Below, piece by piece: positions 18,755 through 48,114 of a DNA stretch of 64,000 nucleotides. Origin of the DNA: Dehalococcoidia bacterium. GTDB taxonomy: Bacteria > Chloroflexota > Dehalococcoidia > Plut-88900. Location: NCBI GenBank assembly GCA_965207225.1, contig CBDBLV010000005.1, positions 832,001 to 896,000 on the forward strand. Direction: 5' to 3'. Position numbers and translations under genes: made by a program. Within the stretch, counting starts at the first letter, position 1. Every line of letters starts with the position of its first letter. The notes under the pieces were generated by a model, which saw only the letters and a list, made by a program, of their open reading frames with translations, ran no database searches and had not been told where the DNA came from.

Positions 18755-18774
18755 AGTGGCGGAGGGAGTGGGAT
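18755..18774. repeat. att site: 20-bp direct repeat of the tRNA-Ser 3' end
   Basis: AGTGGCGGAGGGAGTGGGAT identical at 48113-48132. Confidence 0.95.
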
Positions 18775-19514: not shown

Positions 19515-21464
19515 TCAATACGGTTCTGTGATCCAAGTGAGTTTCCGATTGTCTGAACTCGAATCCAAAAGGTCCCTGAAGTCGCTCTCCCAGAATATCA
19601 GGGAGGCCTGAAGCAGCCCTACGTAGAGTTCATCGAAGCCTGCTTTAAGTAGCTCTTCAACAAACCTATCAAAGTCCCAGAAATCCAAGTCAGGTCGGCT
19701 GGCGTAATCGGCTAGCTCAACGTCCTTCGCCATTGATATGAATAGGCCGGACACGCTCTGGATGGGATCCGCGGTGCCCAATGCCTCCTCAACAACTGAC
19801 CGGTGGGTGTCCACGAGACGCAACGTCTCATAAAATTTGCCGATGTGCTGATCAAGGTCGCGCGCAGAGTCAGATTGTCCCTTAACCTCGATGACCTTGC
19901 ACTCACTTCCGGCGGCGGTGAACCGTATCCCGATCGAATCGATTTCTCTCTTGATATCTGGTGGAAATGTCACATTAAGCGATATTCTTACTTGGGGGTA
20001 GCCGGATTGGGAGAGTAACTGGGCGGAGAGCAACTCAGGGATTGCCCTTCTAATACCCTGCATGATCCTCTCCTGCTTTTTGAATTGATCGAGAAGGCGT
20101 AGGAACGGTCGAGAGTCGCAGAGAGACAACAGACTCTCCACGGGCACGTCGTCCAGGTGAGTCCATTCAATGTCCCTGCCCAACCTCTTCGCAAGGTCGT
20201 TGATTAGGGCAACCCGTTGATCGTCGCTCGGGTTCAGCCCCTCGGCTATATATGGGCGGTCGAACACCCACCATTCCGAGGAGGTACCCGAGGACATGCG
20301 CAGCGCCAACGAGACCTCGTTTGGTTCATTCACCTCCGAACCGTGAACTATCCTCAAGATTTCGATGGGGTGCTTATCTGGAAGCTCAAGTGCAAGACCG
20401 GAGACTATGATTTCGATGTGCCTTCTGCTTGCGGAATCACGCGAAGCGATGAGCTTCGGTCGCTTGCCCAGGAGCGCTGCCAGTCTGTCCACGGGGTCGG
20501 CCAACGTCACTTTAGCGGACAGAGACGGCAGGATTCTGGGTGGCAGCGCCGTGGGCTGTTTCAAGCCGTAGTCCAGCCCCTCAAGGTCTAGGCTGGGAGT
20601 GACCCGAAATATACGCCTTCCGGCTTTCCAACATCTGCCCGGGTCTGAGTTCTGTTGAAGCAGTTTGTGAGGGTTCTCCAGGGCTTCACTCCATTGAGCG
20701 GTCTCTTGAAGAGACACTGTGACAGCGGAGAGCTTTCCTATCAACCAATGGGGCTTGAATTCCGTGTGGTCGTATTCCGGCAACATTCTCATTTGGTCAC
20801 GATGGGTTTGAATGTCGAACATCGACTCGCCCGGCAGTTCCAAGTGCTTCCATTCAGTAGCCTTACGCCTCCCATACCGGAACTTCGGAGAGCCTACGTC
20901 TTCGAACCAGGAGGATTGAAGTAGACCGACCGTGCCCAGGAGAAGAATCTGATCAAGACTTTGATTCTGGCCGCTGTCAGCCCGGCCCGAAACACGGCAG
21001 GTGTGCGCAACTTCCAGGAGTTCATCGGCGATCTGCTCCACCCTTTGGTTTACCTCCGATAACTTCTCCCACGAAACGCCTGCACGAAGATACGCTGTTA
21101 TCACATCATCTATACCACTTGTTACCCTAGCAAGCTCGGAATCCGGATCGGTTAAGGCTGCTCTCAACTTCGTCAGATCGTCTCCCTGAACGATGTTCCA
21201 CCACCTGTATAGATGGTAGTCCGGCTCCAATCCGAGAAGTCCCGGAGAGTAGATGATTCCATCGAGGAGGCCCCATAGTCCGGACTGGACGACAAGCTTA
21301 TAGCCAAGGGCCAAGTCATTCTCCTTTACCCCGGTTTCTGAAAAAACATGGTTACGTATCTCCAGCATGCGGTCGAATGCTGTTACGCTGCATAAAGACT
21401 TAATCAGCATCGCATTCGACATTAGTTTGAGGCGGTCGGCTTGGGTCAGTCGGTCTTCAATCAT
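19515..21464 (-). CDS. Hypothetical protein with a C-terminal PD-(D/E)XK restriction-endonuclease-like domain
   Basis: ELLSAQLL...REIDSIGIR...KVIEVKG motif near the C-terminus. Confidence 0.65.
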   Translation of the reverse strand: MIEDRLTQADRLKLMSNAMLIKSLCSVTAFDRMLEIRNHVFSETGVKENDLALGYKLVVQSGLWGLLDGIIYSPGLLGLEPDYHLYRWWNIVQGDDLTKLRAALTDPDSELARVTSGIDDVITAYLRAGVSWEKLSEVNQRVEQIADELLEVAHTCRVSGRADSGQNQSLDQILLLGTVGLLQSSWFEDVGSPKFRYGRRKATEWKHLELPGESMFDIQTHRDQMRMLPEYDHTEFKPHWLIGKLSAVTVSLQETAQWSEALENPHKLLQQNSDPGRCWKAGRRIFRVTPSLDLEGLDYGLKQPTALPPRILPSLSAKVTLADPVDRLAALLGKRPKLIASRDSASRRHIEIIVSGLALELPDKHPIEILRIVHGSEVNEPNEVSLALRMSSGTSSEWWVFDRPYIAEGLNPSDDQRVALINDLAKRLGRDIEWTHLDDVPVESLLSLCDSRPFLRLLDQFKKQERIMQGIRRAIPELLSAQLLSQSGYPQVRISLNVTFPPDIKREIDSIGIRFTAAGSECKVIEVKGQSDSARDLDQHIGKFYETLRLVDTHRSVVEEALGTADPIQSVSGLFISMAKDVELADYASRPDLDFWDFDRFVEELLKAGFDELYVGLLQASLIFWESDFRDLLDSSSDNRKLTWITEPY

Positions 21465-21938
21465 TCGGGCTCTCCAAACTTGACGTTAACTGCCTATTCG
21501 CTGGCTTTATTGGAACAGATCCATGGCATGCAGGTTTACCGGCTCCAGCAACAGATAGTTTACCCATACCCGTTGCTTTTGGACTCCAAAAGGCCTGCCT
21601 GCCCTGTTTGGTAAGGCAGGGCGCTACACCAGGCGTCCCGGTCAGTTTGCGGTGGCGGATACGAGGAGGAGGCCGGTGTCGGCGTATTCGGTGAGCCAGT
21701 CTCTGCCGTCCACGTGGTAATTCGTCCCGTTCGCTAGCGACCAGCCTACCCCGGACGACAGTCCCACAGAGGGGGCGGACTCTACGGAAGTCGTCCTAAA
21801 CGGACGAGTTATGAGTACAGTATGCGGTGGTGGCCTAAACACCCGTTTGTCCACCTGACTGGGGCTGACGGTCCATATGAATAGCCCTACGATGTTCACG
21901 AAGTATTTCCACTGAGATCTAGAACATCGTGAGGTCAT

Positions 21939-22817
21939 ATGAACACTTCAGCCCAAGTCCCGTCAGTTAATTTCCACCTATGGAAGCCCTGCAATATGAA
22001 GTGCAGATTCTGCTTCGCCACTTTCCAGGATGTCGGGCACGTAGTCATGCCTAGCGGACACCTACCCCGCGAAGCGTCCATAGCTGTCGTGGAGGCACTG
22101 GCCGAGGCCGGCTTCGACAAAATCAATTTCGCCGGTGGGGAGCCCATCCTTTGCCCATGGCTACCTGATTTGATACGGCGAGCCCGAGAATTGGGGCTCA
22201 CCACCTCCATAGTCACTAACGGCAGTTTCATCACGCCTGAATGGATGGATCGTGTAGATGGCTGTCTGGACTGGGCGGCGGTAAGCATAGACACGGTGGA
22301 TCCGGAAAAGTTGATGCGCATGGGGAGAAGCACGCGCACCGGTCCAATGAGCGAGGCCGACTACCTGCGGGTCATGGATATGCTCAGACAGCGCGGCATT
22401 CGACTGAAGGTCAATACTGTGGTGACGAGGATAAACTACAATGAGGAATTGGCTGGTTTCATAGCCAAAGCCGGGCCGGAACGCTGGAAACTACTTCAAG
22501 TGCTGCCCGTCAGGGGCCAGAATGATGGATCGGTGGACAGCATGGTGATCACCAGCGAAGAATTCGCCCGCTACGTAGCACGAAATCGATACGTGGAGTC
22601 TAGGGGCATTGTGGTGGTGCCGGAAAGCAATGATCTGATGACCGGCAGCTACGTGATGATCGACCCGGCTGGACGCTTCTTCGACAATGTGGCCGGTACT
22701 CATGTCTACAGCCGCCCCATTAACCAGGTTGGTGTCGAAGCGGCGTTGAGGCAGGTATCGATCGACACAGACAAGTTCAAGTTGCGGGGTGGTCTGTATG
22801 AATGGCAAAGAGCCTGA
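21939..22817 (+). CDS. Prokaryotic viperin (radical SAM antiviral ddhNTP synthase)
   Basis: SVNFHLWKPCNMKCRFCFATF, KINFAGGEP, SIVTNGS, KVNTVV, RWKLLQ, ESNDLMTGSYVMIDPAGRF, RGGLYEW: all viperin hallmarks. Confidence 0.93.
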   Translation: MNTSAQVPSVNFHLWKPCNMKCRFCFATFQDVGHVVMPSGHLPREASIAVVEALAEAGFDKINFAGGEPILCPWLPDLIRRARELGLTTSIVTNGSFITPEWMDRVDGCLDWAAVSIDTVDPEKLMRMGRSTRTGPMSEADYLRVMDMLRQRGIRLKVNTVVTRINYNEELAGFIAKAGPERWKLLQVLPVRGQNDGSVDSMVITSEEFARYVARNRYVESRGIVVVPESNDLMTGSYVMIDPAGRFFDNVAGTHVYSRPINQVGVEAALRQVSIDTDKFKLRGGLYEWQRA

Positions 22818-22824
22818 GGACTAT

Positions 22825-25383
22825 ATGACTGAACACGAGGTGATGCCCCACCTTCCCACTAGCGGCCAAATACTGGGAGCAATAGTCACAAGACTGGGCA
22901 TCAAACACACCCAATTCCAGAGTCGGACGGCCCGCCGTTACTTCTCAGCCGATTTGGAACACCTCGTTAAGGATTCCTCCAGGGACAAGATCATAGCAAC
23001 GATCGCTGAAGTGCTAACCCGCTCCGGGCTGGTTGCGGCGCCGCAGGAAGAAGTGGACGACTACAGGCAATCTGCGTTGGCCTCCATGCTCCGTTGGCAT
23101 GCCGACCATTGGGACCTGCTGCGGTCGTTCGTTCGCCGTAGGACAATGAGAGTCCTGCCCGGTAACTTGCCAAAGGTGTGGGAGGCATACGTCAGGCTCG
23201 CCATCATCGACCTTGCCCTTAGAGTATCCGCCTATCTGCATCTTGCCGGATCGTCCCCAGCAGCAATGGATTTCCTCGCCTGGGCGAGCCATACAGGTCG
23301 AGGTGGCTATCTCAACCAAAAGCGTCGGCAGACTTCTCTCTCCCTTGAAGAGTTTGCAGAGGCTGTAGGCGTGACAGACAACACCGTCGATGCCTGGATG
23401 TATCACGGTGCTCGGCCGTCCAGTGACAACCTCGCGAAGATAGCCGAGACGCTGGCTAACGAAATTCCAGATTCAAATGCAGCGGACATTGCCCTTGAAC
23501 TGCGGGCCCTGTACTGGGTCAGTGACGTCGCCGCTCTGTTGTCCGAGCACATCGGAGGCCGGGCTACAGAAAAGGTCATCGGGCAATTGCGCCGGTACGC
23601 TGAAGCAACCTATCGTGCAATAGAAGAACAGTTTTCGACCGAAAACCGGTCTGAAGACCTCACGGTGCTGGCGGACTTGGGAGTTGGCGCCCGCCTTGCG
23701 AGACCCCTGCTGGCTTCATTAATCGAACACGAGCCGGATGACGGATGGCGGGAAGATCTTCGGGCCACTGGAATGGACTGGGTCCGACGCGTCCTCTCGG
23801 TAAATCTGGACGTTCACCTTGTGGAGGTGGACGACCTCATCCGTAAGACTGATGGGCGTTTTCTTGACGATTGGGATGTTAGCAACCCCGAGGCTTATGC
23901 TCATTACCGGCGTTCCATGGAACTGCGGATGCAGGGGAAACTCCACGAGGCCCTGGCCGAGGTCGAGATTGCTGTCCGGCTAGACCCCCTGGATCCGGCG
24001 AATCACTGTACGCTGGGGTCAGTGAAGACGGGCATAGGCATTGCACGTGAGGATACGGCTCTTATCAAAGAGGGCCTGAATGCATTGTGGCTGGCGGTGA
24101 CGCTTGACCCCAACTGGATCCTCCCATGGACCGAAATCGGCTTGGTGCTACACCATACCGACAGGTCGGCGGAAGCTGTAGAGCACCTGCGAAACGTGAA
24201 TCCGGAACGCGGACCTCTGGATTCGAAATACTACAGCGCACTAGGGGCTGCATACTGGAAGCTGGGTGAGCTGCCCGAAGCCTTGGCAGCGTTCGAGACG
24301 TCACTCGAACTGGACCCTGAGGAGACTTCCGCTTTGCTGGCAGCATCAGAGCTCGCCTTTTTGATTGGCGACGACGAAAAGCACCGGCGGTATCTCAAAG
24401 GGGCCAGGCATTTCGGAGCGGACGAAGACACCCTCAGAGTTTGGGAACTGCTGCGGCAGTTCGGAGAGAAGGGTCAGGACAAGGCTGAAACGGCCGAGCA
24501 TGACCGGAAAATCGCCATCATGGATGCAGTCATCAAGCTAAACCCTGGCGATGACTATGCCTACTTCGCCAGAGGCCGGTCGCATTTCGCCAAGGGTGAC
24601 GAAGACCTTGCCATTGCGGATTTGGACGCCGTTCTACGGTTGAATCCCGACCATGCGGGGGCCCATCTGATACGGGGCGTTCTGATGGGAAACCGGGGAC
24701 AGTGGAAACGTGTGATCACTGACATGACGGAACTTATCCGGCTCAGACCTGATGACCCTGAGGCCTACTATCGTCGGGGCATGGCCTATGGCGAACTGGA
24801 CCTGTTGGATGAGTCGCTAGTCGATTTGTGCGAAGCCATCCGCCTTAAACCCGATCATGCCGAAGCCCACCGTTCCCGAGGTGATTGCCTTCGTTACAAG
24901 GGAGAATACGATAAGGCAATCGTAGACTTCGATGTCGCACTAGAACTCGACCCGAAGAATGCAGCGGCATACATAGGCCGCGGAGCAGCATACCGCATGA
25001 AGGGTGATCTCGACCTGGCCATTGCAGACTACGACGCAACGTTGCGTCTCAAACCCCGAGACCCGCTTGCTTATAGGTTTCGCGGAGATGCCCACACTGC
25101 CAACAGGAACTACGAGCAGGCTATCTCAGACTGCGACATGGCGCTGAAGCTCAGACCTTGCGACCAGATAGCCTACTTCACTCGCGGCAATGCCCATCTA
25201 TTCAGTGGAAGACTTGAATCGGCGTTAGCGGATTTCAATGCGGCAATTGAACTCGAGCCCGTCAGCGGGCGGTTCATTCATGGCCGTGGGGTAGTTCGCG
25301 AATTGTTGGGCGATGGACAAAGCGCTGGTGAGGACTATCAAAAGGCCAGAGATCTGGGGTACAACGTTGACGATATCGAATAG
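22825..25383 (+). CDS. XRE-type HTH + multi-TPR protein
   Basis: HTH segment SLEEFAEAVGVTDNTVDAWMYHGARPS; more than 10 TPRs (A..RG....GD...AI.D....L.L.P). Likely start ATG 22825, whose GAGGA RBS overlaps the viperin stop. Confidence 0.85.
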   Translation: MTEHEVMPHLPTSGQILGAIVTRLGIKHTQFQSRTARRYFSADLEHLVKDSSRDKIIATIAEVLTRSGLVAAPQEEVDDYRQSALASMLRWHADHWDLLRSFVRRRTMRVLPGNLPKVWEAYVRLAIIDLALRVSAYLHLAGSSPAAMDFLAWASHTGRGGYLNQKRRQTSLSLEEFAEAVGVTDNTVDAWMYHGARPSSDNLAKIAETLANEIPDSNAADIALELRALYWVSDVAALLSEHIGGRATEKVIGQLRRYAEATYRAIEEQFSTENRSEDLTVLADLGVGARLARPLLASLIEHEPDDGWREDLRATGMDWVRRVLSVNLDVHLVEVDDLIRKTDGRFLDDWDVSNPEAYAHYRRSMELRMQGKLHEALAEVEIAVRLDPLDPANHCTLGSVKTGIGIAREDTALIKEGLNALWLAVTLDPNWILPWTEIGLVLHHTDRSAEAVEHLRNVNPERGPLDSKYYSALGAAYWKLGELPEALAAFETSLELDPEETSALLAASELAFLIGDDEKHRRYLKGARHFGADEDTLRVWELLRQFGEKGQDKAETAEHDRKIAIMDAVIKLNPGDDYAYFARGRSHFAKGDEDLAIADLDAVLRLNPDHAGAHLIRGVLMGNRGQWKRVITDMTELIRLRPDDPEAYYRRGMAYGELDLLDESLVDLCEAIRLKPDHAEAHRSRGDCLRYKGEYDKAIVDFDVALELDPKNAAAYIGRGAAYRMKGDLDLAIADYDATLRLKPRDPLAYRFRGDAHTANRNYEQAISDCDMALKLRPCDQIAYFTRGNAHLFSGRLESALADFNAAIELEPVSGRFIHGRGVVRELLGDGQSAGEDYQKARDLGYNVDDIE

Positions 25384-25800
25384 AAAAATGGAAACATTAC
25401 CTGTCGCAAACTGCGCCTGCTTGACCCTTTTGAAATAAGAAAACTCGCTGGGATGTAAACGGATACTGCGTACACGAATTATCCGATTTCGTTGATGGTG
25501 AAGGTGGCCTCTCCCGTGGAGGGACTTGAAGACATGGTGCTGGAGCCAGAAGCTGTCGGAAGGAAAGGTGATGGGGGTTAGCCTGGAGCCTATCCGGTTC
25601 GGTAGAAATGACCGCTCCGAAAAGACCGAATAGGAAGAGGAATGGCCGCCGCGAAGCTGCACCTGGGCTGTTGCATCCGCTACTAACAACACTCCCACTA
25701 GCCAAGCAGGCAATGCTGCATCACCGTGTTACAGTGATTCCCCCGATGGAGTGTTTAGATCATCAGCCTCCAGGAGCTCCATTCGTGTAGTGTAATTCGT

Positions 25801-26211
25801 GTCGATAGCCTCGGTCTTAGCGACACCAGATGGGGTTCGGAGTCGGTGTTGGACTGGTCAACTTTGTCGGTCTGAGTGGACGCGGTAGTGTCAGTTGTCA
25901 AAGACGGAACGCAATCCCCTACGTTGGCGGAAAATTATTCGGGGTAATTCCGTTCCAGGCTCTAGCTCAGCGAAAGCTGAGCAACGTACACGGTGATGAC
26001 TCACAATCGCGCCTGAACGGGATTATAGGATCCGATCAGAGCCCGAATTGGAGGGCGGAGCCATCCCTAGTCGAGAGGTAGCTCCTTCACGGGAACGTCC
26101 ACGACAACGGATAGGCTCTTATCAGAAGACTCTCGGAATGAAGGGGGTCGGATTCTGACATGGATCCCGGCTGGGAGAAGAGGCAGTACCCCGACTGCAC
26201 TCATCTCCTAG
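25801..26211 (+). ncRNA. Putative large structured non-coding RNA (unassigned family)
   Basis: Multiple nested helices rich in G-U pairs on the + strand, a GAAA-tetraloop hairpin (25965-25982), and a candidate pseudoknot (loop 26188-26193 with 25940-25945). No credible ORF. Confidence 0.6.
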
Positions 26212-26213
26212 AC

Positions 26214-26301
26214 ATGGGGATCGGGGAAAGGCAGACGCGCTGCACTTGGAATGCAGTTGCCATTCGTGTCCGTAGGGGTTCGAGTCCCCTCACCCTCACC
26301 A
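26214..26301 (+). tRNA. tRNA-like element: class II (Leu-like) body, anticodon TGG (Pro), degenerate acceptor/D stem
   Basis: GGCAGACGC D-loop region, CTGCA-CTTGGAA-TGCAG anticodon arm, ~17-nt variable region, AGGGG-TTCGAGT-CCCCT T-arm, 3' ACCA. Confidence 0.7.
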
Positions 26302-26359
26302 CCTCTCATGATAAACTTCCCTCGCAATACCGATGCATGCTTAGAAGGGGACTGTAAAG

Positions 26360-26638
26360 ATGACTGATGATTCGCTCAAACTCTTCCAAGACGCACTGCA
26401 GAACGATATCCCCATGTCCAAGCTTCCTACTAGGACTCTAGCCGCCTTCTTCGTATCTGTAGCTCACGCTGCCGTGGAGACCGATGCAGAAACGTTTATG
26501 AGTCATCTAAGTCAAGCCATCGTGAAGGCGCATCAAAAATATCCGAAAATTCTTGTAGACGACGAGAAACCACTTCTAAAGCTCCTTGAAATGCTTCAGG
26601 AGACAGTCGAGGACTTAAGTCGCCGCCGGCCTTCCTAA
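26360..26638 (+). CDS. Hypothetical helical protein
   Basis: 92-aa ORF with AGGGG RBS; no recognised motif. Confidence 0.55.
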   Translation: MTDDSLKLFQDALQNDIPMSKLPTRTLAAFFVSVAHAAVETDAETFMSHLSQAIVKAHQKYPKILVDDEKPLLKLLEMLQETVEDLSRRRPS

Positions 26639-26797
26639 TTTCTTCGAGCATCACTCTAATCTCTTGCTTCCGGTGTCCTATCGCACATTAGCCCCTTTTT
26701 TCGCGCTGGTACCTCAGCTGGTCATACGCGATTTACTGGAACTCAGTTACACCCGCAGACTCCACCAGTGGTATCCTGCTGGTAGAATGGCCCTACT

Positions 26798-27328
26798 GTG
26801 AATATACGAATTGCTGGGATGTCAGACTATCCACCAGCTTGGGCCCAACTCCTGACCGATAGGCCAGTCGAGCAATTTCTGCGTCGAGCAGTCATATACA
26901 CGCATGAGATCGACTACCTGGTTTTGGTATCCCCCTTCATTGGGCCACTTAAGGGAGTCTCTCCGAGCATGTCGAGGTTGATAAAGAGGATTGAAAGAGA
27001 CCGAATCCCCACCTATGTCGTCACTAATGAGCCAGATAAGCCTTCCCAGCAGAAGGCGGTTGACATGCTCTCAAAATGCCGCTACACGGAGATCCGTTAC
27101 AACGCTTCCTTGCACGCGAAAGTTTACGTTTGCAAGGCACGCCAAAATGGGTTCGCGATGCTAGGATCTGGAAACTTAACAGCAACCTCGATTTCAAAAA
27201 AGATTGAAGTGGGCATTATGATCAGAGATAAAGGACCGGGAGTCTACGTCTTCAACGACTTATGGCGGTGGGGGTCTCACAGACTCCGCACACTAAGCGA
27301 AAGTAAATTGATCAAGGGCATGTCCTGA
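26798..27328 (+). CDS. Stand-alone phospholipase D-family (HKD) nuclease
   Basis: VSPFI, LHAKVY, GSGNLT, IEVGI motifs. Confidence 0.85.
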   Translation: MNIRIAGMSDYPPAWAQLLTDRPVEQFLRRAVIYTHEIDYLVLVSPFIGPLKGVSPSMSRLIKRIERDRIPTYVVTNEPDKPSQQKAVDMLSKCRYTEIRYNASLHAKVYVCKARQNGFAMLGSGNLTATSISKKIEVGIMIRDKGPGVYVFNDLWRWGSHRLRTLSESKLIKGMS

Positions 27329-27482
27329 GAGTGGGCCCACGGGAGATATCCGCATTGTAGAAGGTCTCCTATCATTTTATGCGGCAGTAGCCACTACACC
27401 TGTAGGTCTCGAAATCCAAACCCAGTGACCTCATTTTCTGGAAAAGCACTAATCTCAGATGAAAACACAGGAGGATCGTTAA

Positions 27483-28643
27483 GTGGAATTTAAAGACTGG
27501 TTTTGCCTTAATGCACGTGACAGCTTCACGATAGACCCTTTGATCTATCCCTCCGACGACCGGTTCTACTTTGGACGGTCAGACATCAAATCTAGGCTAT
27601 TTGCCCAAATCAAAAGGTCTTTCATCGATCCCGGTGTGCCAAAAGTAGTGCTCTTCGGTGCCTACGGTACAGGTAAGACCCAGACTCTGCACCATATCGA
27701 TCATTACCTGAAGACATCTCCCCCTAAATCGCTCCGCCACAAGCCTAGAGCAGTGCACGTCGTCCTTGAGATGAGTAGCAAGTCCTCCTACAGGGAATGG
27801 CACCTCCAGTTACTGGAGGCATTGTCTCGGGACACGGTTACCACATGGGTGGAGAGAGCGTTTGAGAAGGCACCAGACTGGGACGAGTTCTTGAAGAGGA
27901 CACTAAACGACCCGAACCTAATCCAGGCCGTGAAAAACCTCCGAGGAGGAGGGGAGCCGCCCCTCACAGCTTGGAAATGGCTTACAGGCCAGAAGCTCTC
28001 CGCAGCGGAACTGCAGCGGCTTAACTTGACCAGGAGCCTGGGTGACGTTGGGTCTGGCGATTTGGTGAATGCCATCGTAGCACTGGGTAGACTAGCCACA
28101 GAGAGCAGCGGTGAGAAGTTGATACTCCTAATGGATGAGGCCGAGTCGTTTAGCCGCATACGAGACGTAGATGCAGTCGAGTCAGTCCACAACTATCTGC
28201 GCCGCTTAGCAGATCAACAGAACTCGTCACTTGGGTTCGTGATTTCCACTTTTGCCAATATTGAAGACGACATGCCGGACATAATCCAGCGGGCAGACGT
28301 CAGGTCGAGGATAGGCGCCAGCAACTACCTCGAGATCCCACCACTGCCCGGTGTCGAGGATGTCAAGGCCTTCCTTGAGGAGCTATTGCAGGAGCTGATA
28401 GACCAGGATATGGCAGAGGCACGGATCCAAGAGAAAGGCTTGAGTTCTACCCGGGAGACCTACCCGTTCGACGCTGAGGGGTTCGGCCTACTTTGTGACT
28501 ATGCGTCGCAAGACCCTGTAAAGGCACTCCCGCGGAACATTATTCACGCAGTGAACGAGTGTGCCATCTCCGCATGGGACCTGGAGAGTCTAGTGATTGA
28601 TAGCACTATCATTAATGAAGTAGCACCTCTAGTCTTTTCCTAG
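27483..28643 (+). CDS. P-loop AAA+-type ATPase 1
   Basis: Walker A GAYGTGKT, Walker B LLMDEAE, putative arginine finger DVRSRI, YPF...PRNII lid. Confidence 0.85.
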   Translation: MEFKDWFCLNARDSFTIDPLIYPSDDRFYFGRSDIKSRLFAQIKRSFIDPGVPKVVLFGAYGTGKTQTLHHIDHYLKTSPPKSLRHKPRAVHVVLEMSSKSSYREWHLQLLEALSRDTVTTWVERAFEKAPDWDEFLKRTLNDPNLIQAVKNLRGGGEPPLTAWKWLTGQKLSAAELQRLNLTRSLGDVGSGDLVNAIVALGRLATESSGEKLILLMDEAESFSRIRDVDAVESVHNYLRRLADQQNSSLGFVISTFANIEDDMPDIIQRADVRSRIGASNYLEIPPLPGVEDVKAFLEELLQELIDQDMAEARIQEKGLSSTRETYPFDAEGFGLLCDYASQDPVKALPRNIIHAVNECAISAWDLESLVIDSTIINEVAPLVFS

Positions 28644-28645
28644 AG

Positions 28646-30016
28646 ATGAAACGATTCACGATCCGTCCAGCAATTTCCCACGGCCGACCAGTGCGAATTG
28701 GTAGTGGAGACTCGAAAGGCGACTGGGTGTCCCTTGGCAGGCTCGCTGAGGCCGGACCAGCCTCTCAAGTCCAGCACGACCTAAGTGGTGAGCACGTGGT
28801 GGCGATCGTTGGGAAGCGGGGTTCGGGAAAGTCGTATGCTCTCGGAGCCCTCCTCGAGGGCTTGGCAATCGGAGAGGCGGGATCAGCCCTCGCCAGTACA
28901 GACCGTAGAAGGGCAGTATTGCTCTTCGATACGCTGGGCATCTTCCAATGGATGGATGTCCCGGTAACCGCAGCCAACAATTCACCAGAAGTGCAGAGAC
29001 AATACCAGTCCCGGTCTGGCTGGGACCTTCCTGAAGCTGCGGTAGACGCCTTGGTCTGGAGGCCGCGTGGGCCCGGTCCAGCTCCACCACAACAGATGGA
29101 ACTCGTGGTCAAGCATAGTGACCTTGATGTCTCCGACTGGGCTTACCTCTTCGGTTTAGACCTGCTCCAAGACCGCATGGGGCAGTTGCTGAATGACGCT
29201 TTCTACAAAGTCACCACCGAAGGCTGGTATGCGGGAAGCACACCGAAGGCGCCGACGCAGGACTACAGCCTAGCTAACGTCATTGAATGCATAAACTCGG
29301 ATCCCGAGTTGAACACTACATATCAGTCGGAGACTAGGCGGGCGATAGTCCAACAGCTCACGACGTACTCCAGAAACCCGGTTTTTGGTGAAGACGGGGT
29401 AGGATTGCGGGAGCTATTGAAGCCCGGATACATCAGCGTCGTTGTAATGAACCGGATGAATACGGGGCTCCGCTTCGCACTCATCACTTCGATAGTTAGG
29501 CGCCTCATGCGCTCTAGGATCGCAGCGTCCGAGATCGAAAAAGAGCTGAGGATCCGGGGTAACATGACTCAGGAGCAACGCTTATCGCTTGAGGCCCAGT
29601 TAGCGGACGCCGTACCACCAACATGGATAGCTGCTGACGAGGCACAGAACTTCCTTCCTTCGGAGCGGAATACCGGGGCATCGGAAGTGCTAATTCAGTT
29701 GGTTAGAGAAGGGAGGAACTATGGCCTCTCGTTCGTTGTCACTACACAGCAGCCAACCGCGATTGACCCGAGGATAATGGCCCAGGTGGACACTTTGATG
29801 GCCCACAAGCTGACAGTGCAGGCTGACATTGAACAGATTCGCAGGAACCTAAAGAGCCAGCTACCATCCCAGATAAGGTATGGACACCGAGAACTCGGAC
29901 TCGAAGGGCTGCTTCACGAGCTTGATGTCGGCCAAGCAGTCGTATCCAACACCGATGCCCCTAGGACTCTTGTCATAGATGTGAGACCCCGGCTGTCTGT
30001 GCACGGGGGGTTCTAA
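28646..30016 (+). CDS. HerA/FtsK-family ATPase (DUF87-like)
   Basis: HVVAIVGKRGSGKSY, IAADEAQNF, LVREGRNYGLSFVVTTQQP. Confidence 0.9.
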   Translation: MKRFTIRPAISHGRPVRIGSGDSKGDWVSLGRLAEAGPASQVQHDLSGEHVVAIVGKRGSGKSYALGALLEGLAIGEAGSALASTDRRRAVLLFDTLGIFQWMDVPVTAANNSPEVQRQYQSRSGWDLPEAAVDALVWRPRGPGPAPPQQMELVVKHSDLDVSDWAYLFGLDLLQDRMGQLLNDAFYKVTTEGWYAGSTPKAPTQDYSLANVIECINSDPELNTTYQSETRRAIVQQLTTYSRNPVFGEDGVGLRELLKPGYISVVVMNRMNTGLRFALITSIVRRLMRSRIAASEIEKELRIRGNMTQEQRLSLEAQLADAVPPTWIAADEAQNFLPSERNTGASEVLIQLVREGRNYGLSFVVTTQQPTAIDPRIMAQVDTLMAHKLTVQADIEQIRRNLKSQLPSQIRYGHRELGLEGLLHELDVGQAVVSNTDAPRTLVIDVRPRLSVHGGF

Positions 30017-31264
30017 GTGTATTCCGACCTAGGCCTACGGAGACCCAGCGTATTAGATACACCACGGAGGTCCATGCAACGGCTCGGCTTACTAAAGTTG
30101 CTCGTAGGCGTATCAGCCCGGGGGTCTGCGAACACCCTCCTATCGACCGGTGGGCAAGTGATCAAAGCTCTGACCAGCAAGGTAGTCCTCCCCTGGGACA
30201 ACCGAACCGCCTCCTATGTCCGCTCTGCGCTCTCGGTGCAGACAAACGCAAGGCTCAGGGAACAAGCCGCCGGCTTTTTGTCACCAGGGTACTCTGGACC
30301 TCGGCAAGTCGCTTTAGAGCTACAGGACGCTTACCTCGCCCTCGGCCGTCTCCCGTCCCGCCGGGGCCGCTTGGCAACTACAGACGATTCGAGGTTTCCG
30401 CATTGGGGGATAGCGTTAGGACTGACTAGGAAAGAGCCCTTTGACCCCCTGGTACGCGGGAACCTTCTCCTTAAACTAACTAAGGATGCGGAGCTTTTGG
30501 GATTCAGCCAATTTGACCCCTTGGTCAACCCCTTAGAGCTGACCAGGCCCCAACGGGTGTTTTTTATGTACGTCATCTTAAAGAGAGACCTCAGCATCCT
30601 GGTGCCCCTATATGAGCGGCTGGCAGAGCTTAACGGAACGTTTTCTGATATGGAAGCGGGGGATCTGTTGCCAGAGTTGTATTTCTCGGCCTCTAAGGCA
30701 CTCAAGCGCACGGGCAGGGGCGGGAACGACTCAGTCTGGGCGAACCAACTCGCTGAGACGGCCTCGGCTATAAGGGCACGCCAAGGCAAGTCCTACGGCA
30801 AAACCGTAAGGGAGCAGACCGTAACCCCCCGGCTAGAGCCGTTTGTTGATCTAGGCATACTCGCCAAGACTTCCGCATATTCTTACGAGTATCGTTTCAC
30901 TCCTGAGGGACGGGAATTTTTCTCCAATATGAAAGGGAAGTGGAACGGTTCATTCTCCTGGTTTGGCAAGGAGGCCGCAACTGTTTTCGGATATGGAGAC
31001 AGGGAGGTGTCGAGGGACACCGAATTACTCAGGCTCCTTTTTTCGGCTTGGGGGGAGATCAAGAGCCACCTAGGTTATTCTCCCATCGATGAGACCCTGC
31101 TCTTAGGACTGATTCATGGCCTTGAGGAAGGAGCTGGCTGGTTTGACTTGGGCAAAGCCTACAATACGCTACGCTCTGCCCAGAAGGCAGTGCCGGGACT
31201 TCTCAGGTTTAACATGGACCGGTACGGCCGCCTTTCGGTCGTCCGATTTATGCGTCCCCCATAG
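30017..31264 (+). CDS. Hypothetical protein, possibly tandem winged-helix
   Basis: Abuts the HerA stop; PRLEPFVDLGIL...YRFTPEG resembles a wHTH wing. Confidence 0.65.
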   Translation: MYSDLGLRRPSVLDTPRRSMQRLGLLKLLVGVSARGSANTLLSTGGQVIKALTSKVVLPWDNRTASYVRSALSVQTNARLREQAAGFLSPGYSGPRQVALELQDAYLALGRLPSRRGRLATTDDSRFPHWGIALGLTRKEPFDPLVRGNLLLKLTKDAELLGFSQFDPLVNPLELTRPQRVFFMYVILKRDLSILVPLYERLAELNGTFSDMEAGDLLPELYFSASKALKRTGRGGNDSVWANQLAETASAIRARQGKSYGKTVREQTVTPRLEPFVDLGILAKTSAYSYEYRFTPEGREFFSNMKGKWNGSFSWFGKEAATVFGYGDREVSRDTELLRLLFSAWGEIKSHLGYSPIDETLLLGLIHGLEEGAGWFDLGKAYNTLRSAQKAVPGLLRFNMDRYGRLSVVRFMRPP

Positions 31265-31270
31265 TATGTC

Positions 31271-32383
31271 ATGAATAGTGACTTCAGCCATTTGTTCATC
31301 ACTAGGTGGCCGTTTCGGACAGTGCCCGACGCTGAGTCAAGTAAGCTATGGGCCGACCGGTCACGTCTCCGTGCTCAAGTCAAAAAGCTGTTGTGGCGCT
31401 GGGGCCGCAGCGACCAAAGTACCATCCACCTTATGTGGGCCGACCTCGGCGCCGGCAAGAGCCATACCCTGAGGCACATACAGTCGCGCCTGTTGGACTC
31501 GCCTGAGTCGGGAATGTATCCCATCTATTCCGTGATGCCGCGGGAACTGCGGACGTTCCTCGATGTGTACCAAGCCATACTCGCTGGCCTAGACCTAAAC
31601 CGGTTGGGACAGATGTCTGTGGCTGCCCTTCGTGCCGAAGGGTCCAAAGACAAATTGGTCAAGAACGCATTCCCCGGTCTACCTGAAGCGGTCACGGCGT
31701 TAGTGGCGCTGCAGGCTGAGAGCGAAAGTGACCGGACAGTTGCCGCTCAGTGGCTCAGAGGTACGCGGGGCCTCACGAAGCGTGACCTACGGCCGCTGGG
31801 AGCTATCCGGAGCATCAAGACCACCGATGAGGCAGTCGCAGCCCTTAGCGGGATCATGTATGTCGTCAGAGTGGCAGAGAAAACGAGTAGGTTCGTAGTG
31901 ATGTTGGACGAAGCCCAACGCCTTGGGCAGGCTTCAAATAAGGTTCGCCAAGACGTCAACGTGGGGTTGCAGACTTGGTACGACTCTAGTCCAAATAACC
32001 TCACCCTGATTATGTCGTTCGGAAGTGGGAACGAGGACTATGTCCGCCATATGGTCAGTCAAGAATTGCAGCGCCGTGAAGACTATGACCGCTTGCGACT
32101 CGAGCTGTTCGAGCCCGCAGAAATAGTCGAATTTGTTGCCGATCTCCTGCAACAGAGCCGGTCAGGCGAACCACCACATGAGTGGTTCCCCTTCACGGAG
32201 ACCCTCGTCTGCGAACTTGCGACACGTATGTGCAACAACGGAGGAGTGACCGCCGGAGCAATAATGAAGGCCTTTAACGCCGTACTGACAGAACTGGACT
32301 ATGAGATCGGAACTGGCGACGGTGACGAGGTAGGGGAAGCTTCCTTAGTTAGGAGGGGGCTTGAAGCGTTAGAGACCGGTTAG
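31271..32383 (+). CDS. P-loop AAA+-type ATPase 2
   Basis: Walker A ADLGAGKS, Walker B VMLDEAQ, ELQRR, WFPF; architecture parallels ATPase 1. Confidence 0.85.
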   Translation: MNSDFSHLFITRWPFRTVPDAESSKLWADRSRLRAQVKKLLWRWGRSDQSTIHLMWADLGAGKSHTLRHIQSRLLDSPESGMYPIYSVMPRELRTFLDVYQAILAGLDLNRLGQMSVAALRAEGSKDKLVKNAFPGLPEAVTALVALQAESESDRTVAAQWLRGTRGLTKRDLRPLGAIRSIKTTDEAVAALSGIMYVVRVAEKTSRFVVMLDEAQRLGQASNKVRQDVNVGLQTWYDSSPNNLTLIMSFGSGNEDYVRHMVSQELQRREDYDRLRLELFEPAEIVEFVADLLQQSRSGEPPHEWFPFTETLVCELATRMCNNGGVTAGAIMKAFNAVLTELDYEIGTGDGDEVGEASLVRRGLEALETG

Positions 32384-32404
32384 CCTTTCTGGAGGTGGGA
32401 CTCC

Positions 32405-32887
32405 ATGTCAGATGACCTCGTCTGGGACTCAGCTGATGACCCCGGCTGGGATATTTATGACGAGCTGTGGCCCCACATCCGGCACCTGGAGCATGAGGCA
32501 GGCGAAGGGAGGCTCCCCAGGTGTGCATTTGAGGGGCGGTGTGAGGACTGTCCTGTAGCGTCCGGGAAGACGTGTCCGATCTCAACTGATAACGACTTTA
32601 TCTCGCTATTGCTCTACTACAGTGCGACCGATTCCGGACTGAGTCAACTCACGGCCCAGTCATCGCAGTCGTGGACTCAAACAGTTAGAGAACAACGGTT
32701 GAACTTGATTGCGAGGGTCTTGCAGAGGAACAAACTAGCGATGCACTGGGAACTGGTTGCGAAAATAGTGAAGGAGGAAGAGCCTGTGCTGTTCCCGTCG
32801 CCTAGGTCAGTCCTTGCTACCCTCAGGGGTAACCCTGAACGTTTCTCAATGGAATCGCCCGGTTCATATTTCCTAAACGCGGACTGA
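32405..32887 (+). CDS. Small Cys-cluster protein with a putative C-terminal winged helix
   Basis: C-x5-C-x2-C-x7-C (CAFEGRCEDCPVASGKTC); MHWELVAKIV...SVLATL...F....PGSYFL; GGAGG RBS. Confidence 0.6.
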   Translation: MSDDLVWDSADDPGWDIYDELWPHIRHLEHEAGEGRLPRCAFEGRCEDCPVASGKTCPISTDNDFISLLLYYSATDSGLSQLTAQSSQSWTQTVREQRLNLIARVLQRNKLAMHWELVAKIVKEEEPVLFPSPRSVLATLRGNPERFSMESPGSYFLNAD

Positions 32888-33109
32888 TCATTCCTGCAGC
32901 TTGGCCGCTGGTGACGGTTAAGTCAGTACCTTGACTCCTAAGTCCCCACTTACTGTGGGCATTGAGGCCGAGGTAACCTTGAAAGTTAATTGTTGTGTCA
33001 CTACAATACCACTGACTCAAGAAAAAGGCGGCCAACGTAGACATGTTATCGTCCGCGCCGGGCATTCCTCACCTTTCGGGCTCCTTACAAAGAGTGGATG
33101 TAGCATAAG

Positions 33110-33310
33110 ATGCCCCTCGAAGATTACCTCACAGCTATCGAGGCTGCGCGCCGGCTCCGTGTGCATCCGGAGACCGTAAAGCGCCTCTGCAGGCAGGGTG
33201 ACCTCCCCGCGGAGAAAGTCCACAATACGTGGTTGATACACCAGGACACGCTCGCAGTGTTCGCCGGGACGTACGACCCACGGCCTGGGGCTAAGAGGCG
33301 GCTGCTCTAG
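33110..33310 (+). CDS. Excisionase-like (MerR/HTH_17) DNA-binding protein
   Basis: YLTAIEAARRLRVHPETVKRLCRQGDLPAEKV..TWLI. Confidence 0.85.
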   Translation: MPLEDYLTAIEAARRLRVHPETVKRLCRQGDLPAEKVHNTWLIHQDTLAVFAGTYDPRPGAKRRLL

Positions 33311-33311
33311 T

Positions 33312-34526
33312 ATGGAAATCGACAATCGCTCACACATATCCCTCTTCACGGGAGCCGGGGGGCTAGACCTCGGGATAGACCGGTCGGGCTTTACCACCCT
33401 TGTAGCCGTCGAAAAGGACAAGTATGCCCAGGAGACCCTCAGGTCTAACAGGGCACATTTCGAGTTCCCCAGCTTCGAGTTGCTCGCTGATGCGACCGAG
33501 TTAACAGGGGAAGACCTGCTAAACGCGGCGGGAGTCAAGAGGGGGAACCTAGACTTGCTGAGCGGTGGCCCGCCTTGCCAGGCCTTTAGCACGGCAGGTC
33601 ACCGCGCTTCTCTCTCTGATCCCCGCGGGAGCCTACTCGGCCGGTTCCTACAACTCGTAGGGGAACTCGAGCCAAGGTTCTTCGTCCTCGAGAACGTACG
33701 CGGCGTCCTGTCCGCGGCCCTCAGGCACCGCCCCCTCGATAGGCGGGGGGAGGGACATGAACCGCTCAGTGAGGACGAGGAGCTGGGTAGCCTCCTCAGT
33801 TCCGTGATCCTTCCATGGATCACCGTACGTCTGCGTTACCAAGTCTCATATGGCCTAGTGAATTCCGCGGACTACGGCGTACCTCAGTTACGCCACAGGG
33901 TCGTCTTCATAGGGAGCCGGGATCACGAGCTAAGTGGCTGTGGACAACCCCCCAGCATTGGGGATCTGGTGCCGGCGACCCACTCCGGGCAGCCAGACAG
34001 CGCTCTGCCTCCGTGGCGTACCCTAAGGGACGCCTTGGCCAGACTACCGGTCACCGACTCCGAAGGTGCACGTTACAGTCCGGCGAGGGCGGCGGTGATG
34101 AGGAATGTGCCCCAAGGCAGGAACTGGCGCTTCCTGAGGGACAACTTCGGGGATGACTACCTGCGCTCGGTCATGGGAGGGGCATATGACTCTACCGGGG
34201 GCCGCGTCGGCTTCTGGCGCAGGCTCAACCTGGATAAACCGTCCCCGACACTGCCGGCCAGCCCGGTTCAGAAGGCGACGAGCCTCTGCCACCCCACGGA
34301 GACTAGGCCCTTGAGTGTGCGGGAGTACGCGCGCGTGCAACAGTTCCCCGACGACTATGTCTTCGCCGGCCCGACCTCGGCCAAATATACGCAGATCGGC
34401 AATGCCGTGCCAGTAGGACTGGCCTACGCGGTAGGAAGGGCGGTCGGTCGGTTCTACCTAGGCAATAGGGTTGCGAAGGATCCGGGGGTGCCCCAAGTCC
34501 AGCCCGAACTACTCCCGGCTGGGTAG
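33312..34526 (+). CDS. DNA (cytosine-5)-methyltransferase
   Basis: Motif I FTGAGG, IV GGPPCQ, VI ENV, VIII QLRHRV, X YTQIGNAVP. Confidence 0.95.
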   Translation: MEIDNRSHISLFTGAGGLDLGIDRSGFTTLVAVEKDKYAQETLRSNRAHFEFPSFELLADATELTGEDLLNAAGVKRGNLDLLSGGPPCQAFSTAGHRASLSDPRGSLLGRFLQLVGELEPRFFVLENVRGVLSAALRHRPLDRRGEGHEPLSEDEELGSLLSSVILPWITVRLRYQVSYGLVNSADYGVPQLRHRVVFIGSRDHELSGCGQPPSIGDLVPATHSGQPDSALPPWRTLRDALARLPVTDSEGARYSPARAAVMRNVPQGRNWRFLRDNFGDDYLRSVMGGAYDSTGGRVGFWRRLNLDKPSPTLPASPVQKATSLCHPTETRPLSVREYARVQQFPDDYVFAGPTSAKYTQIGNAVPVGLAYAVGRAVGRFYLGNRVAKDPGVPQVQPELLPAG

Positions 34527-34542
34527 GCCCTGGGGTGACAGT

Positions 34543-35292
34543 CTACGGGAACTTAGGTACCATCTCTGCCCAGTTGACCTCGCCTTCCCGGTTGGCCAAG
34601 CCCTCCAGAGTGAGGTACTCCACCAGGCGATCAACTACCCTGACCTTCTCGGCTTCGAACCTGACGTAATCCAGAGGGTTGCGGCCCAGGGCCTCGCTGA
34701 GCCTCTCCAGGAAGCTCTCTCCTGCGCCGAAGTACTCCCACATACACTCACCGACGAGCCAGAGGATCCCCTCGTCGGTCGTGGTTTTCTTACGCTTACC
34801 CCTGGCTACGGCTTTGACCATCACAACCCTGGTGCCCTCCTGGGCGAGTGGGTTGTCGTCGGTGGCCCTCTGACCTTCCCAATACCGTTTGGCGCGGCCT
34901 AAGTTGGTAGCCGTCGCCTCGGTTATGTCACCGTTTGACGTAGAGAGCCCGGACTTTAGGTTGATCACCCTCAGCTCGCCCGGCATCGCTTGGATGAAGT
35001 CTATTCCCTTGTAGCCGGTCAGCCTCTTCTGGGCCAGAGTCACCTTCTGGGGACCCAGTACTTGGAGAATCCTCTCGTACAGGAAACCCATCGTCATTTC
35101 CATAGTGGCAACCAAACGGTGCTCGACTAGCTGCCTCGCCAGCCCTCGGGAGTCGCTTATGCCGAGGCCGCGGTACATGTTCAGGTCGCGTTTCTCGAGC
35201 AAATCCTTGGCCTTAACCTTGCGCGGGGCCTCTTCGGCGTATGCGTTCCACGCCTGAACCACCTTGTCCAACTGGCCTTTGGTGATCGCCAT
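34543..35292 (-). CDS. Putative type II restriction endonuclease
   Basis: Convergent with the MTase; MGFLYE...GIDF...INLKSG PD-(D/E)XK-like motif. Confidence 0.7.
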   Translation of the reverse strand: MAITKGQLDKVVQAWNAYAEEAPRKVKAKDLLEKRDLNMYRGLGISDSRGLARQLVEHRLVATMEMTMGFLYERILQVLGPQKVTLAQKRLTGYKGIDFIQAMPGELRVINLKSGLSTSNGDITEATATNLGRAKRYWEGQRATDDNPLAQEGTRVVMVKAVARGKRKKTTTDEGILWLVGECMWEYFGAGESFLERLSEALGRNPLDYVRFEAEKVRVVDRLVEYLTLEGLANREGEVNWAEMVPKFP

Positions 35293-35505
35293 TGCTGTCC
35301 CCTTACGGCTCTAGGGTCATCCGCCAGTTTACACCTATATTGGTTCGAACTGCACAACATCGCCCGGAGACAACATCAAAGGGAGCGCATTTACCTAGTA
35401 AACAAACCGGGCCCGAGAGTCTCTTGTAACGACGTCTTTACTAAGGTACAAGCATGCCATCTCTAAGGACTCGAATATGGACCAATATCATAGGAGGTTC
35501 CAGAT

Positions 35506-35784
35506 ATGGAAACAGTCACCGCTTTACGGACAATTCACCGAGGGATGGCAGTAAGCGACGGACAAGGGCTGACGCTGTATGTAGGTGCTATGACCCTGGG
35601 CCAGCTAGGCAGGCAGGCGAAAGTGGACATGTGGAGTCCTTCGAACGCTGACGAGTAACAACGCCCCCTTGTAGGCCGGTGGCTCCGAGCACTGGCCCAG
35701 TATCTCATTGACCAACTGTCCAGAAGGCAGACTACCTCGCTGAAAATCAAACTCCCACCAGTCGCATACGGGGGTGTGCCGTAA
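35506..35784 (+). pseudogene. Remnant of a DGQHR/DndB-like protein N-terminus
   Basis: AGGAGG RBS; ...LYVGAMTLGQL...VDMWSPSNADE*QRPL..RWLRALAQYL, with TAA (35656) at the Y of the conserved YQR motif; rest of the gene missing. Confidence 0.5.
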
Positions 35785-35943
35785 GGGCCTATACATTAGA
35801 ATCTCCGGGTATCATCTCTTCCGGATATGCTGACCGATCTGCAGTACTGGTGCGTCCTGTCCGTGCGTGGCTGTCGGAGGCCTAAGATCGGGGAGACTGC
35901 GCACTATTAGTATAACGAACATCACCACTGGGAGCCCGGTGTA

Positions 35944-40934: not shown

Positions 40935-40977
40935 TGAGCAGGATCAGCTCAGCCTGCAATAACCGAAAGGAAAGCTC

Positions 40978-41007
40978 TTGACAAGTTATTGTAGAACCTG
41001 ATATACT
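40978..41007 (+). promoter_or_regulatory. Sigma70-type promoter for the STAND operon
   Basis: TTGACA-18 nt-TATACT with extended TG. Confidence 0.65.
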
Positions 41008-41039
41008 GGCCGTATCATACATTCTGTATTTGATTGTCA

Positions 41040-47955: not shown

Positions 47956-48114
47956 AGATACCTCCAAAAATCCCAAATTGTTCCCACGAATGTTACCACA
48001 GTTGTTGTGGGAACTCAAAAGATTAGGAGGGTGAGAGAAGGTAGACCAAATGGCAATATTAGCTATGGAGCAAGCGTAAAACGAGAAAAAAGAGGATGTC
48101 TAAAAGAGTTGTAG

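Follow-up and report, generated by a model that had tools for sequence, protein, structure and literature searches.

The window analyzed here is a stretch of 64,000 nucleotides (nt) from a Dehalococcoidia bacterium (assembly GCA_965207225.1, contig CBDBLV010000005.1, positions 832,001 to 896,000). Its subject is a two-gene cassette on the forward strand, in which a prokaryotic viperin (pVip) is followed by a large protein, termed the partner below, that carries a helix-turn-helix (HTH) domain and arrays of tetratricopeptide repeats (TPRs). The evidence is computational throughout, and all genomes in which the cassette was found are uncultured metagenome-assembled genomes (MAGs). The source genome is 92.3% complete with 8.3% contamination. 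Among the sequencing runs listed, four from a single sample contain this DNA, and none is an RNA run. The features of the cassette are listed below, with partner residues (amino acids, aa) numbered from the ATG at 22825.

21846–21869, + strand: conserved upstream element, a candidate operator or activator site, composed of block A TTTGTCCAC (21846–21854) and block B ACTGGGGCTGAC (21858–21869).
21865–21894, + strand: putative sigma-70-type promoter, with −35 CTGACG (21865–21870), a 17-nt spacer and −10 TACGAT (21888–21893).
21931–21934, + strand: GAGG Shine-Dalgarno (SD) sequence of the viperin gene, 4 nt 5' of the ATG; CGTGAGGTC is kept in most cassettes.
21939–22817, + strand: gene for the viperin, a radical-SAM enzyme of 292 aa, assigned from its open reading frame (ORF), family models and motifs.
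22816–22819, + strand: GAGG SD sequence of the partner gene, overlapping the viperin stop codon TGA (22815–22817), with equivalents in 13 other cassettes.
22825–25383, + strand: partner gene, 852 aa from the ATG at 22825 or 861 aa from an ATG at 22798.
22825–23274, + strand: N-domain of the partner (aa 1–150), all-helical and without a family match; W96, D97, R124, D129 and R133 are nearly invariant.
23275–23559, + strand: XRE-type HTH domain (aa 151–245), with recognition helix ...GVTDNTVDAWMYHGARPS, supported by Pfam, VIA-align and PHROG matches.
23560–23934, + strand: helical middle domain (aa 246–370), TPR-like in its second half; W308 and W319 are nearly invariant.
23935–24489, + strand: TPR block 1 (aa 371–555), five repeats and a capping helix by helix count, present in short and long forms of the partner.
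24547–25362, + strand: TPR block 2 (aa 575–846), eight exact 34-aa repeats, absent in short forms (about 530–590 aa).

The viperin gene is complete, as a preliminary description of this DNA had stated. Its ORF is intact and matched NCBIfam NF038283 (viperin_w_prok) with 305.8 bits against a cut-off of 180, the PADLOC pVip models with E values of 1.4e-88 and 6.3e-81, and Pfam Radical_SAM with 76.3 bits. The eukaryote-type model TIGR04278 gave 155 against a cut-off of 450, a value below threshold as expected of the prokaryotic form, and with the PADLOC pVip-kinase model the viperin half alone was aligned (profile positions 176–462 of 474). The radical-SAM cluster motif CxxxCxxC (C18, C22, C25) and the SAM-binding motif GGEP (66–69) are invariant in 18 aligned viperins. 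The enzyme is a member of the pVip family and, judged by this membership, should convert a nucleoside triphosphate into its 3'-deoxy-3',4'-didehydro (ddh) chain terminator. Both ORFs of the cassette were regarded as real genes and not chance frames, because they are long and their hidden Markov model scores are strong.

The junction between the two genes reads ...CC-TGA-GGACTAT-ATG, with the partner ATG located 5 nt past the GAGG, and the reported overlap of the viperin stop codon with the ribosome-binding site of the second gene was found as described. The frame of the partner is open over 22789–25383 (+; 864 aa), and use of the alternative ATG at 22798 gives a 20-nt overlap with the viperin end. 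As a second cassette copy in the same genome has the upstream ATG only, the partner may start at either 22825 or 22798; the two genes are tightly coupled whichever ATG is used. Among the 14 junctions listed, the partner starts 1–25 nt past the viperin stop codon or 20 nt before it, with the SD sequence in the viperin 3' end.

The partner had been described as a protein of about 850 aa with an internal XRE HTH and more than 10 TPRs. This agrees with the present analysis, which gave 852 aa, an HTH_3 match and about 13 TPRs (5 + 8), with a short linker between the two blocks. Pfam HTH_3 scored 25.2 bits against a cut-off of 23 (aa 177–222 of the 864-aa frame), and the PHROG scan gave matches to transcriptional regulators. 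When an AlphaFold2 (AF2) model was compared by VIA-align, aa 151–243 superposed on HigA 2ict with Z 9.8 (root-mean-square deviation, rmsd, 2.1; 80 residues aligned) and the HTH on CapH-NTD 7t5u with Z 9.0 (rmsd 1.6; 65 aligned). Overall, HigA, CapH-NTD, P22 c2 and C.AhdI scored Z 9–10, with HigA best (9.7–9.8). Judged from sequence and predicted structure together, the domain is a genuine member of the XRE family.

Models of aa 1–370 and aa 151–560 reached a predicted local distance difference test score (pLDDT) of 92.3 and 91.5 and a predicted template-modelling score (pTM) of 0.88 and 0.77, respectively. Pfam TPR_1 matched the repeats with 169.9 bits, seven units being individually significant, and the model of aa 151–560 aligned with Z 18 to PilW, TTC0263 and PilF. 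The fold searches used whole models, the lists being filled by HTH matches for aa 1–370 and by TPR matches for aa 151–560. Foldseek with aa 1–370 returned nothing at E ≤ 1e-3 past HTH-level likeness, with weak rows for the Stl repressor (prob 0.84–0.97, TMt about 0.36), and a search of the ESM Atlas with aa 1–155 was uninformative (best score 0.76). The PDB profile search with the partner gave TPR matches alone. From these searches, the N-domain so far lacks a known relative in fold.

Scans with Pfam, NCBIfam, PADLOC and PHROGs yielded no catalytic domain for the partner, and the first three yielded no P-loop NTPase family. Family scans detected no peptidase in the partner or in the neighboring genes. 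The stated absence of an adjacent nucleotide kinase was likewise upheld by Pfam and PADLOC scans of the ORFs from 19515 to 36630, in which no other recognizable enzyme adjoined the pair.

Linkage of the partner to viperin in other genomes had been set beforehand as the test of the pairing. A word-indexed search with the N-terminal 440 aa of the partner returned 354 proteins at E ≤ 1e-3, the best 120 of them 62–100% identical. Nineteen partner loci lay in assembled genome contigs, all from Chloroflexota MAGs (Dehalococcoidia, SAR202). Viperin was located directly upstream on the same strand in all 17 of these loci with upstream DNA, at 60–80% identity to the window viperin, while in the remaining two the contig starts 5 nt before the partner gene. 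The same arrangement was observed in both metagenome loci with upstream DNA.

When 401 sampled Chloroflexota genomes were searched with a profile, most matches covered TPRs only, and true matches to the N-terminal module (N-module) occurred in seven genomes. Three genomes of this search that are flagged as unpublished (G145, G038, G227) underlie none of the conclusions. Among the seven, G197 (partner 55% identical) and contig C6 of G045 (38%) both have viperin directly upstream. Altogether, with both copies in the source genome included, viperin directly precedes 23/23 partner relatives with upstream DNA, over a range of 38–87% identity, which is contrary to the outcome named beforehand as refuting the pairing. 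The locus scans relied on two peptide patterns, so that more divergent cassettes or those of other phyla could be missed. No partner relatives were found in the viral contigs searched.

The source genome (G000) holds a second cassette (L058, C5:1469443–1472888) on the same 2.08-Mb contig, with viperin 91% and partner 87% identical, flanked by a serpin gene and ORFans. A third viperin of this genome (L057, C4:57059–57901; 54% identity) has no partner within ±5 kb and sits between genes for a gamma-glutamyltranspeptidase and a major facilitator superfamily (MFS) transporter. In the sample of 401 genomes, viperin occurred in three (among the sampled genomes of genus g90, in G197 only). These three genomes carry five viperin genes, and as four of the five have a partner, the paired form may be the norm in Chloroflexota.

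Clustering of ORFs of at least 70 aa within ±6 kb of the cassettes left viperin and partner as the sole recurring genes; no third gene, including a small peptide gene or a CapP-like peptidase gene, recurred within these limits. The flanks vary and include an integrase, an SMC-like ATPase, an FRG/pentapeptide protein, a helicase, a serpin and many ORFans. Similarity among cassettes ends at the partner stop codon, with nothing conserved 3' of it. Pairwise distances of viperin and of the partner N-module were correlated across 16 cassettes (Mantel r 0.92, 0/5000 permutations). The proposed two-gene module of viperin and HTH/TPR protein is strongly supported by this linkage, by the tight junctions, by the correlated distances and by a cis-element that travels with the cassette, described below.

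Several further observations concern the state of individual loci. Four contigs (L007, L008, L071, L073) all start 5 nt before the partner gene; their genomes, like G000, probably hold two copies, as the breaks resemble those that arise in assembly when a cassette is repeated. L012 and L025 have a disrupted viperin frame and L024 a disrupted partner frame, some of these cases perhaps being assembly errors. A search for longer, fused viperins returned kinase fusions and histidine-phosphatase fusions. One candidate, P0101, was rejected as a functional viperin-partner fusion, since it is a deletion product joining viperin aa 1–181 to the partner from aa 17 onward.

The region 5' of the cassette was compared by aligning 183 nt upstream of 18 cassettes. 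No similarity was observed until about 95 nt before the viperin ATG, after which three blocks with 11 invariant columns appeared. The cassette consensus is TTTGTCCRC for block A and AACTGGGGCTGAC for block B, followed 17 nt later by block C, CCTACGATG, so that the conserved region spans about 50 nt (TTTGTCCRC..ACTGGGGCTGAC-N17-CCTACGATG). The −10 hexamer TACGAT falls inside block C (21886–21894), and the element of about 24 nt formed by blocks A and B abuts and overlaps the putative −35. The assignment of the promoter, from conservation and spacing, is putative. Each hexamer has four of six consensus bases, and the consensus promoter/terminator scan listed nothing at the conserved element, as the scanner needs 9/12 matches.

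L056, the most divergent cassette, has the element as well, as do L072 and L074. The pattern TTGKCCN5ANTNGGGYTG occurred at two sites in the 4.03-Mb genome, one before each cassette, and at none in the reversed control. The element was not found upstream of the solo third viperin or of stand-alone partner relatives. No Rfam family matched in 21300–22100, and the element is on this basis not a known RNA. As the cassette carries its own conserved control region, the HTH protein encoded in it is the obvious candidate reader.

The family of the partner extends beyond the cassettes. An exhaustive search with aa 1–370 gave 314 cluster representatives at E ≤ 1e-3, 174 at E ≤ 1e-10 and 57 at E ≤ 1e-30. 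Distant representatives (21–33% identity, 540–640 aa) align along the whole N-module, and the HTH followed by a few TPRs was retained in the 26 scanned. The recognition helix DNTVDAW is conserved inside the cassette clade and variable in distant relatives. None of five distant relatives (27–32% identity; G278, G318, G080, G170, G045) has a viperin within ±6 kb; the neighbors of the stand-alone relatives include genes for ComEC, ProC, an alpha/beta hydrolase, GrpE/DnaJ, an aminotransferase, PanC and OTCase. By sequence relationship, the viperin partner is a branch of a wider Chloroflexota HTH-TPR family.

Each of the stand-alone relatives L059–L063 (G278, G318, G045, G170, G080) is preceded by a small ORF with the motif ...NPNN..YW.SRG..[DE]RP.DW..., which bears an acidic tail in genus g90. 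Its product may be a small partner protein, encoded at the place taken by viperin in the cassette.

Conservation was compared between the two genes and along the partner. Among ten long-form cassettes, mean pairwise identity was 0.77 for viperin, 0.69 for the N-domain, 0.66 for the HTH, 0.67 for the middle domain, and 0.71 and 0.67 for TPR blocks 1 and 2, respectively. Between the two copies in the source genome, dN/dS was 0.16 for viperin and 0.24 for the partner (N-module 0.23, TPR block 1 0.22, TPR block 2 0.26), values that point to purifying selection on both genes. The suggestion that the TPR array senses phage proteins found no support: the partner domains are equally conserved (0.66–0.71; dN/dS 0.22–0.26), and distant relatives lie among housekeeping genes. 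The TPR arrays are under no less constraint than the other domains, which speaks for a conserved ligand and against a sensor engaged in an arms race with variable phage proteins.

Among the short forms, L019, L021 and L014 are truncated, with TPR remnants past a premature stop codon, some perhaps through assembly errors, and L013, L020, L023, L030 and L056 look genuine. As these forms do without TPR block 2, the N-module and TPR block 1 constitute the minimal unit.

In the window, the cassette lies in an integrative island, the limits of which are given with its integrase.

18755–48132, no strand assigned: integrative island of 29.4 kb, bounded by 20-nt direct repeats AGTGGCGGAGGGAGTGGGAT at 18755–18774 and 48113–48132.
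46801–48018, − strand: tyrosine integrase of the island.

The right repeat is the 3' end of a tRNA-Ser gene (48115–48206, −), and housekeeping genes (isochorismatase, MiaB-like, Fur) lie to the left of the island. The island also carries a relaxase-like gene, a restriction-modification (R-M) pair and a HerA/PLD/AAA cluster. The genes of the last are co-oriented (26798–32887, +) and encode a PLD-like protein with weak matches to DrmC/ZacB, an AAA ATPase weakly matching BrxD, a HerA-like/mads_8 ATPase, a protein of 415 aa with no family assignment, an AAA_22 ATPase and a protein of 160 aa, likewise unassigned. No PADLOC model classified this cluster, which is a candidate defence system. The convergent type II R-M pair at 33312–35292 consists of a Dcm-type C5 cytosine methyltransferase (33312–34526, +) and an EcoO109I-like endonuclease (34543–35292, −). 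At 39237–44651, a Replic_Relax/MarR-like protein of 565 aa is followed by one of 1205 aa (N-terminal HTH_3, weak AAA/ORC-CDC6-like region), after which two ORFs without family occupy 44722–46654. The 649-aa ORF divergent from the cassette (19515–21464, −) matched nothing in Pfam, PADLOC or PHROGs.

Several classes of HTH regulators and TPR proteins resemble the partner in part. CapH (with CapP) of CBASS, BrxR/CapW and the C-proteins of R-M systems are HTH regulators of defence operons. Like the cassette, they have an XRE-type HTH encoded with the effector and a conserved promoter-proximal site of their own, and CapH-NTD 7t5u and C.AhdI 1y7y were among the structural matches of the partner HTH. 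However, these regulators are small and usually encoded upstream of or divergently from the effector, and CapH works with a protease, whereas the partner HTH is internal in an 852-aa protein with 13 TPRs, its gene lies 3' of the effector, and no CapP-like peptidase gene is conserved.

In RNPP-type regulators (PlcR, NprR, Rap and the phage arbitrium regulator AimR), an HTH is followed by a TPR peptide receptor. This order is shared by the partner, and PlcR 2qfc aligned over both parts (Z 13.9, 254 aligned, rmsd 17.7). The TPR domains of Rap and NprR scored Z 14.2–14.7 against the partner, but generic TPR proteins scored Z 18, which speaks against specific kinship. Unlike in RNPP regulators, the partner HTH is preceded by a conserved 150-aa N-domain, the TPRs form a far longer array, and among ORFs of at least 70 aa no peptide gene recurs near the cassettes.

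The effector gene precedes and overlaps one for an HTH protein with the HigA fold (Z 9.8), an order that recalls higBA-type modules. The partner is, however, about eight times larger than the higBA antitoxin (~100 aa) and carries TPR arrays, and no viperin is known to need an antidote. Avs/STAND NTPases and animal IFITs share with the partner the use of TPR solenoids in an antiviral context. Unlike Avs/STAND proteins, the partner lacks an NTPase domain (NACHT/NB-ARC) and its TPRs are not hypervariable. The parallel with IFITs drawn in the preliminary description holds as an analogy only, IFIT1 chains appearing weakly among generic TPR matches (E 1.1e-14, versus 5.9e-80 for consensus TPR proteins in the PDB profile search). 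The partner represents a new family, apparently outside the RNPP, CapH/CapP, toxin-antitoxin, STAND and IFIT groups, and it may act as an HTH-TPR signal-responsive regulator.

With respect to viperins, Bernheim et al. (2021) reportedly found the prokaryotic enzymes alone or with nucleotide kinases. In the available part of Shomar et al. (bioRxiv 10.1101/2023.09.13.557418), nucleotide kinases are given as partners of 12% of bacterial viperins, and HicA or RelE RNases are named as pVip partners in the available part of a further preprint (bioRxiv 10.1101/2023.12.08.570793). The window cassette shares with known pVips the enzyme family, the motifs and the island or accessory context. It differs in its partner, which is an 852-aa HTH-TPR protein with no kinase, as against the kinases and HicA/RelE named in the available parts of these sources. 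No description of a viperin paired with an HTH/TPR protein was found in the literature searched (the neighborhood tables of the founding pVip paper lay outside this search). Relative to that literature the pairing appears new, while the enzyme itself belongs to the known pVip family. So far, pVips have been treated as single-gene or kinase-aided systems, annotation tools call them solo, and the control of their output is largely unaddressed in the literature searched.

The favored reading is that the cassette would be a self-contained, horizontally mobile two-gene antiviral operon with its own promoter. The partner would bind the conserved element through its HTH and autoregulate the operon, and a signal received by its TPR solenoid would switch viperin output; the ligand would most likely be a conserved protein or peptide and not a fast-evolving phage protein. 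The analysis demonstrates the two genes, their domain make-up, their strict linkage and the conserved cis-element, whereas it is inferred that the partner binds DNA at this site, in which direction it regulates and what kind of signal it receives. On the sequence data, a regulatory role of the partner through its HTH is plausible, and the specific proposal, in which the partner receives a signal through its TPRs and acts on the operon at this site through its HTH, is given about an even chance. The reading is supported by the strict linkage, the lack of other recurring genes, the tight junctions, the conserved element, the genuine XRE domain, the purifying selection on both genes with their correlated distances, and the defence context, namely the tRNA-Ser island with its R-M pair and HerA/PLD-like genes and the patchy distribution of the cassette.

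A number of points weigh against it. No dyad symmetry is evident in the conserved element, and XRE dimers usually bind palindromes; the element could also be a mere promoter or sigma-factor determinant. In the model (pTM 0.88), the HTH lies internally as part of a compactly packed module of 370 aa, and its DNA-binding face is perhaps inaccessible. The close coupling and the size of 852 aa are odd for a simple repressor and would suit a stoichiometric protein partner better. Because its distant relatives sit among housekeeping genes, the partner family is not defence-specific, and a role as infection sensor is not supported by sequence evolution, the TPRs showing no diversifying signal. The Mantel correlation may partly reflect shared species phylogeny, and the antiviral effect, enzyme activity and substrate of this viperin clade are presumed.

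The main rival is a gating arrangement resembling toxin-antitoxin systems, in which the partner would bind viperin through the TPR solenoid or the N-module and keep the enzyme inactive, the complex or the free partner would repress the promoter, and infection, by removing or occupying the partner, would free the enzyme. The gene order, with the effector first and the HTH-protein gene starting in overlap with it as in higBA-type modules, fits such an arrangement, as does the HTH, which in structure comes closest to HigA antitoxins. To judge from the junction, the two proteins would be made in near-equimolar amounts, the two genes are strictly co-inherited (23/23) with correlated distances, and evenly conserved TPRs would be expected if the ligand were the conserved viperin itself. 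Yet solo viperins exist, one of them (54% identical) in the source genome, so that an antidote is not needed in principle, and L024 combines an intact viperin with a broken partner frame (perhaps an assembly error). Antitoxins are also small, whereas the partner is not, and its distant relatives work without viperin. Gating is rated as unlikely, although it is the strongest of the alternatives to the regulator proposed above.

Two further alternatives were judged improbable to a similar degree. The partner could be a co-effector or scaffold, with the HTH binding invading or host DNA and the TPRs recruiting viperin or other proteins, so that the ddh nucleotide would arise at sites of viral polymerases, or it could add a second, independent antiviral activity. 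It is large, solenoid-rich and predicted to be co-expressed with the enzyme, and an unrecognized activity could reside in the N-domain (aa 1–150), which has no known family. This account is at odds with the failure of the family scans to find a catalytic domain and with the housekeeping contexts of stand-alone relatives, and it leaves the cassette-specific conserved promoter element unexplained. Alternatively, a viperin-type enzyme might make a modified nucleotide for a physiological purpose, under an HTH-TPR regulator from an otherwise housekeeping family. The genes near distant partner relatives (ComEC, ProC, GrpE/DnaJ, PanC) fit this possibility, and several cassette neighborhoods consist of ORFans or metabolic genes only. 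However, the enzyme scores as an equivalog of antiviral viperins (NF038283) and matches the PADLOC pVip models, and the cassette lies here in an island with integrase, R-M and HerA/PLD-like genes and elsewhere beside an integrase, an SMC-like ATPase or a helicase. The distribution (3/401 genomes; in g90, G197 only) is the patchy one typical of accessory defence genes. That the two genes are chance neighbors without a functional link is scarcely credible: nothing speaks for it beyond the fact that TPR and HTH proteins are common, and it is refuted by the 23/23 linkage over differing flanks, the tight, overlapping junctions and the shared 5' element.

On a wider reading, the cassette would provide the first case of a prokaryotic viperin that comes with its own circuit for induction or gating, in which the partner would read an infection- or stress-linked signal through its TPR solenoid and switch on synthesis of ddhNTPs (ddh nucleotides) at the conserved cassette promoter or by release of the enzyme. 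This wider claim is put forward tentatively, as a possibility that is rather doubtful than probable. The N-domain, HTH, middle domain and TPRs together define a new protein family, and the cassette is a directly testable case of regulated or gated viperin immunity. If the circuit is real, bacteria would have an equivalent of the induction of viperin by signals known from animals, and the partner family would have been recruited once from a housekeeping class of Chloroflexota HTH-TPR regulators.

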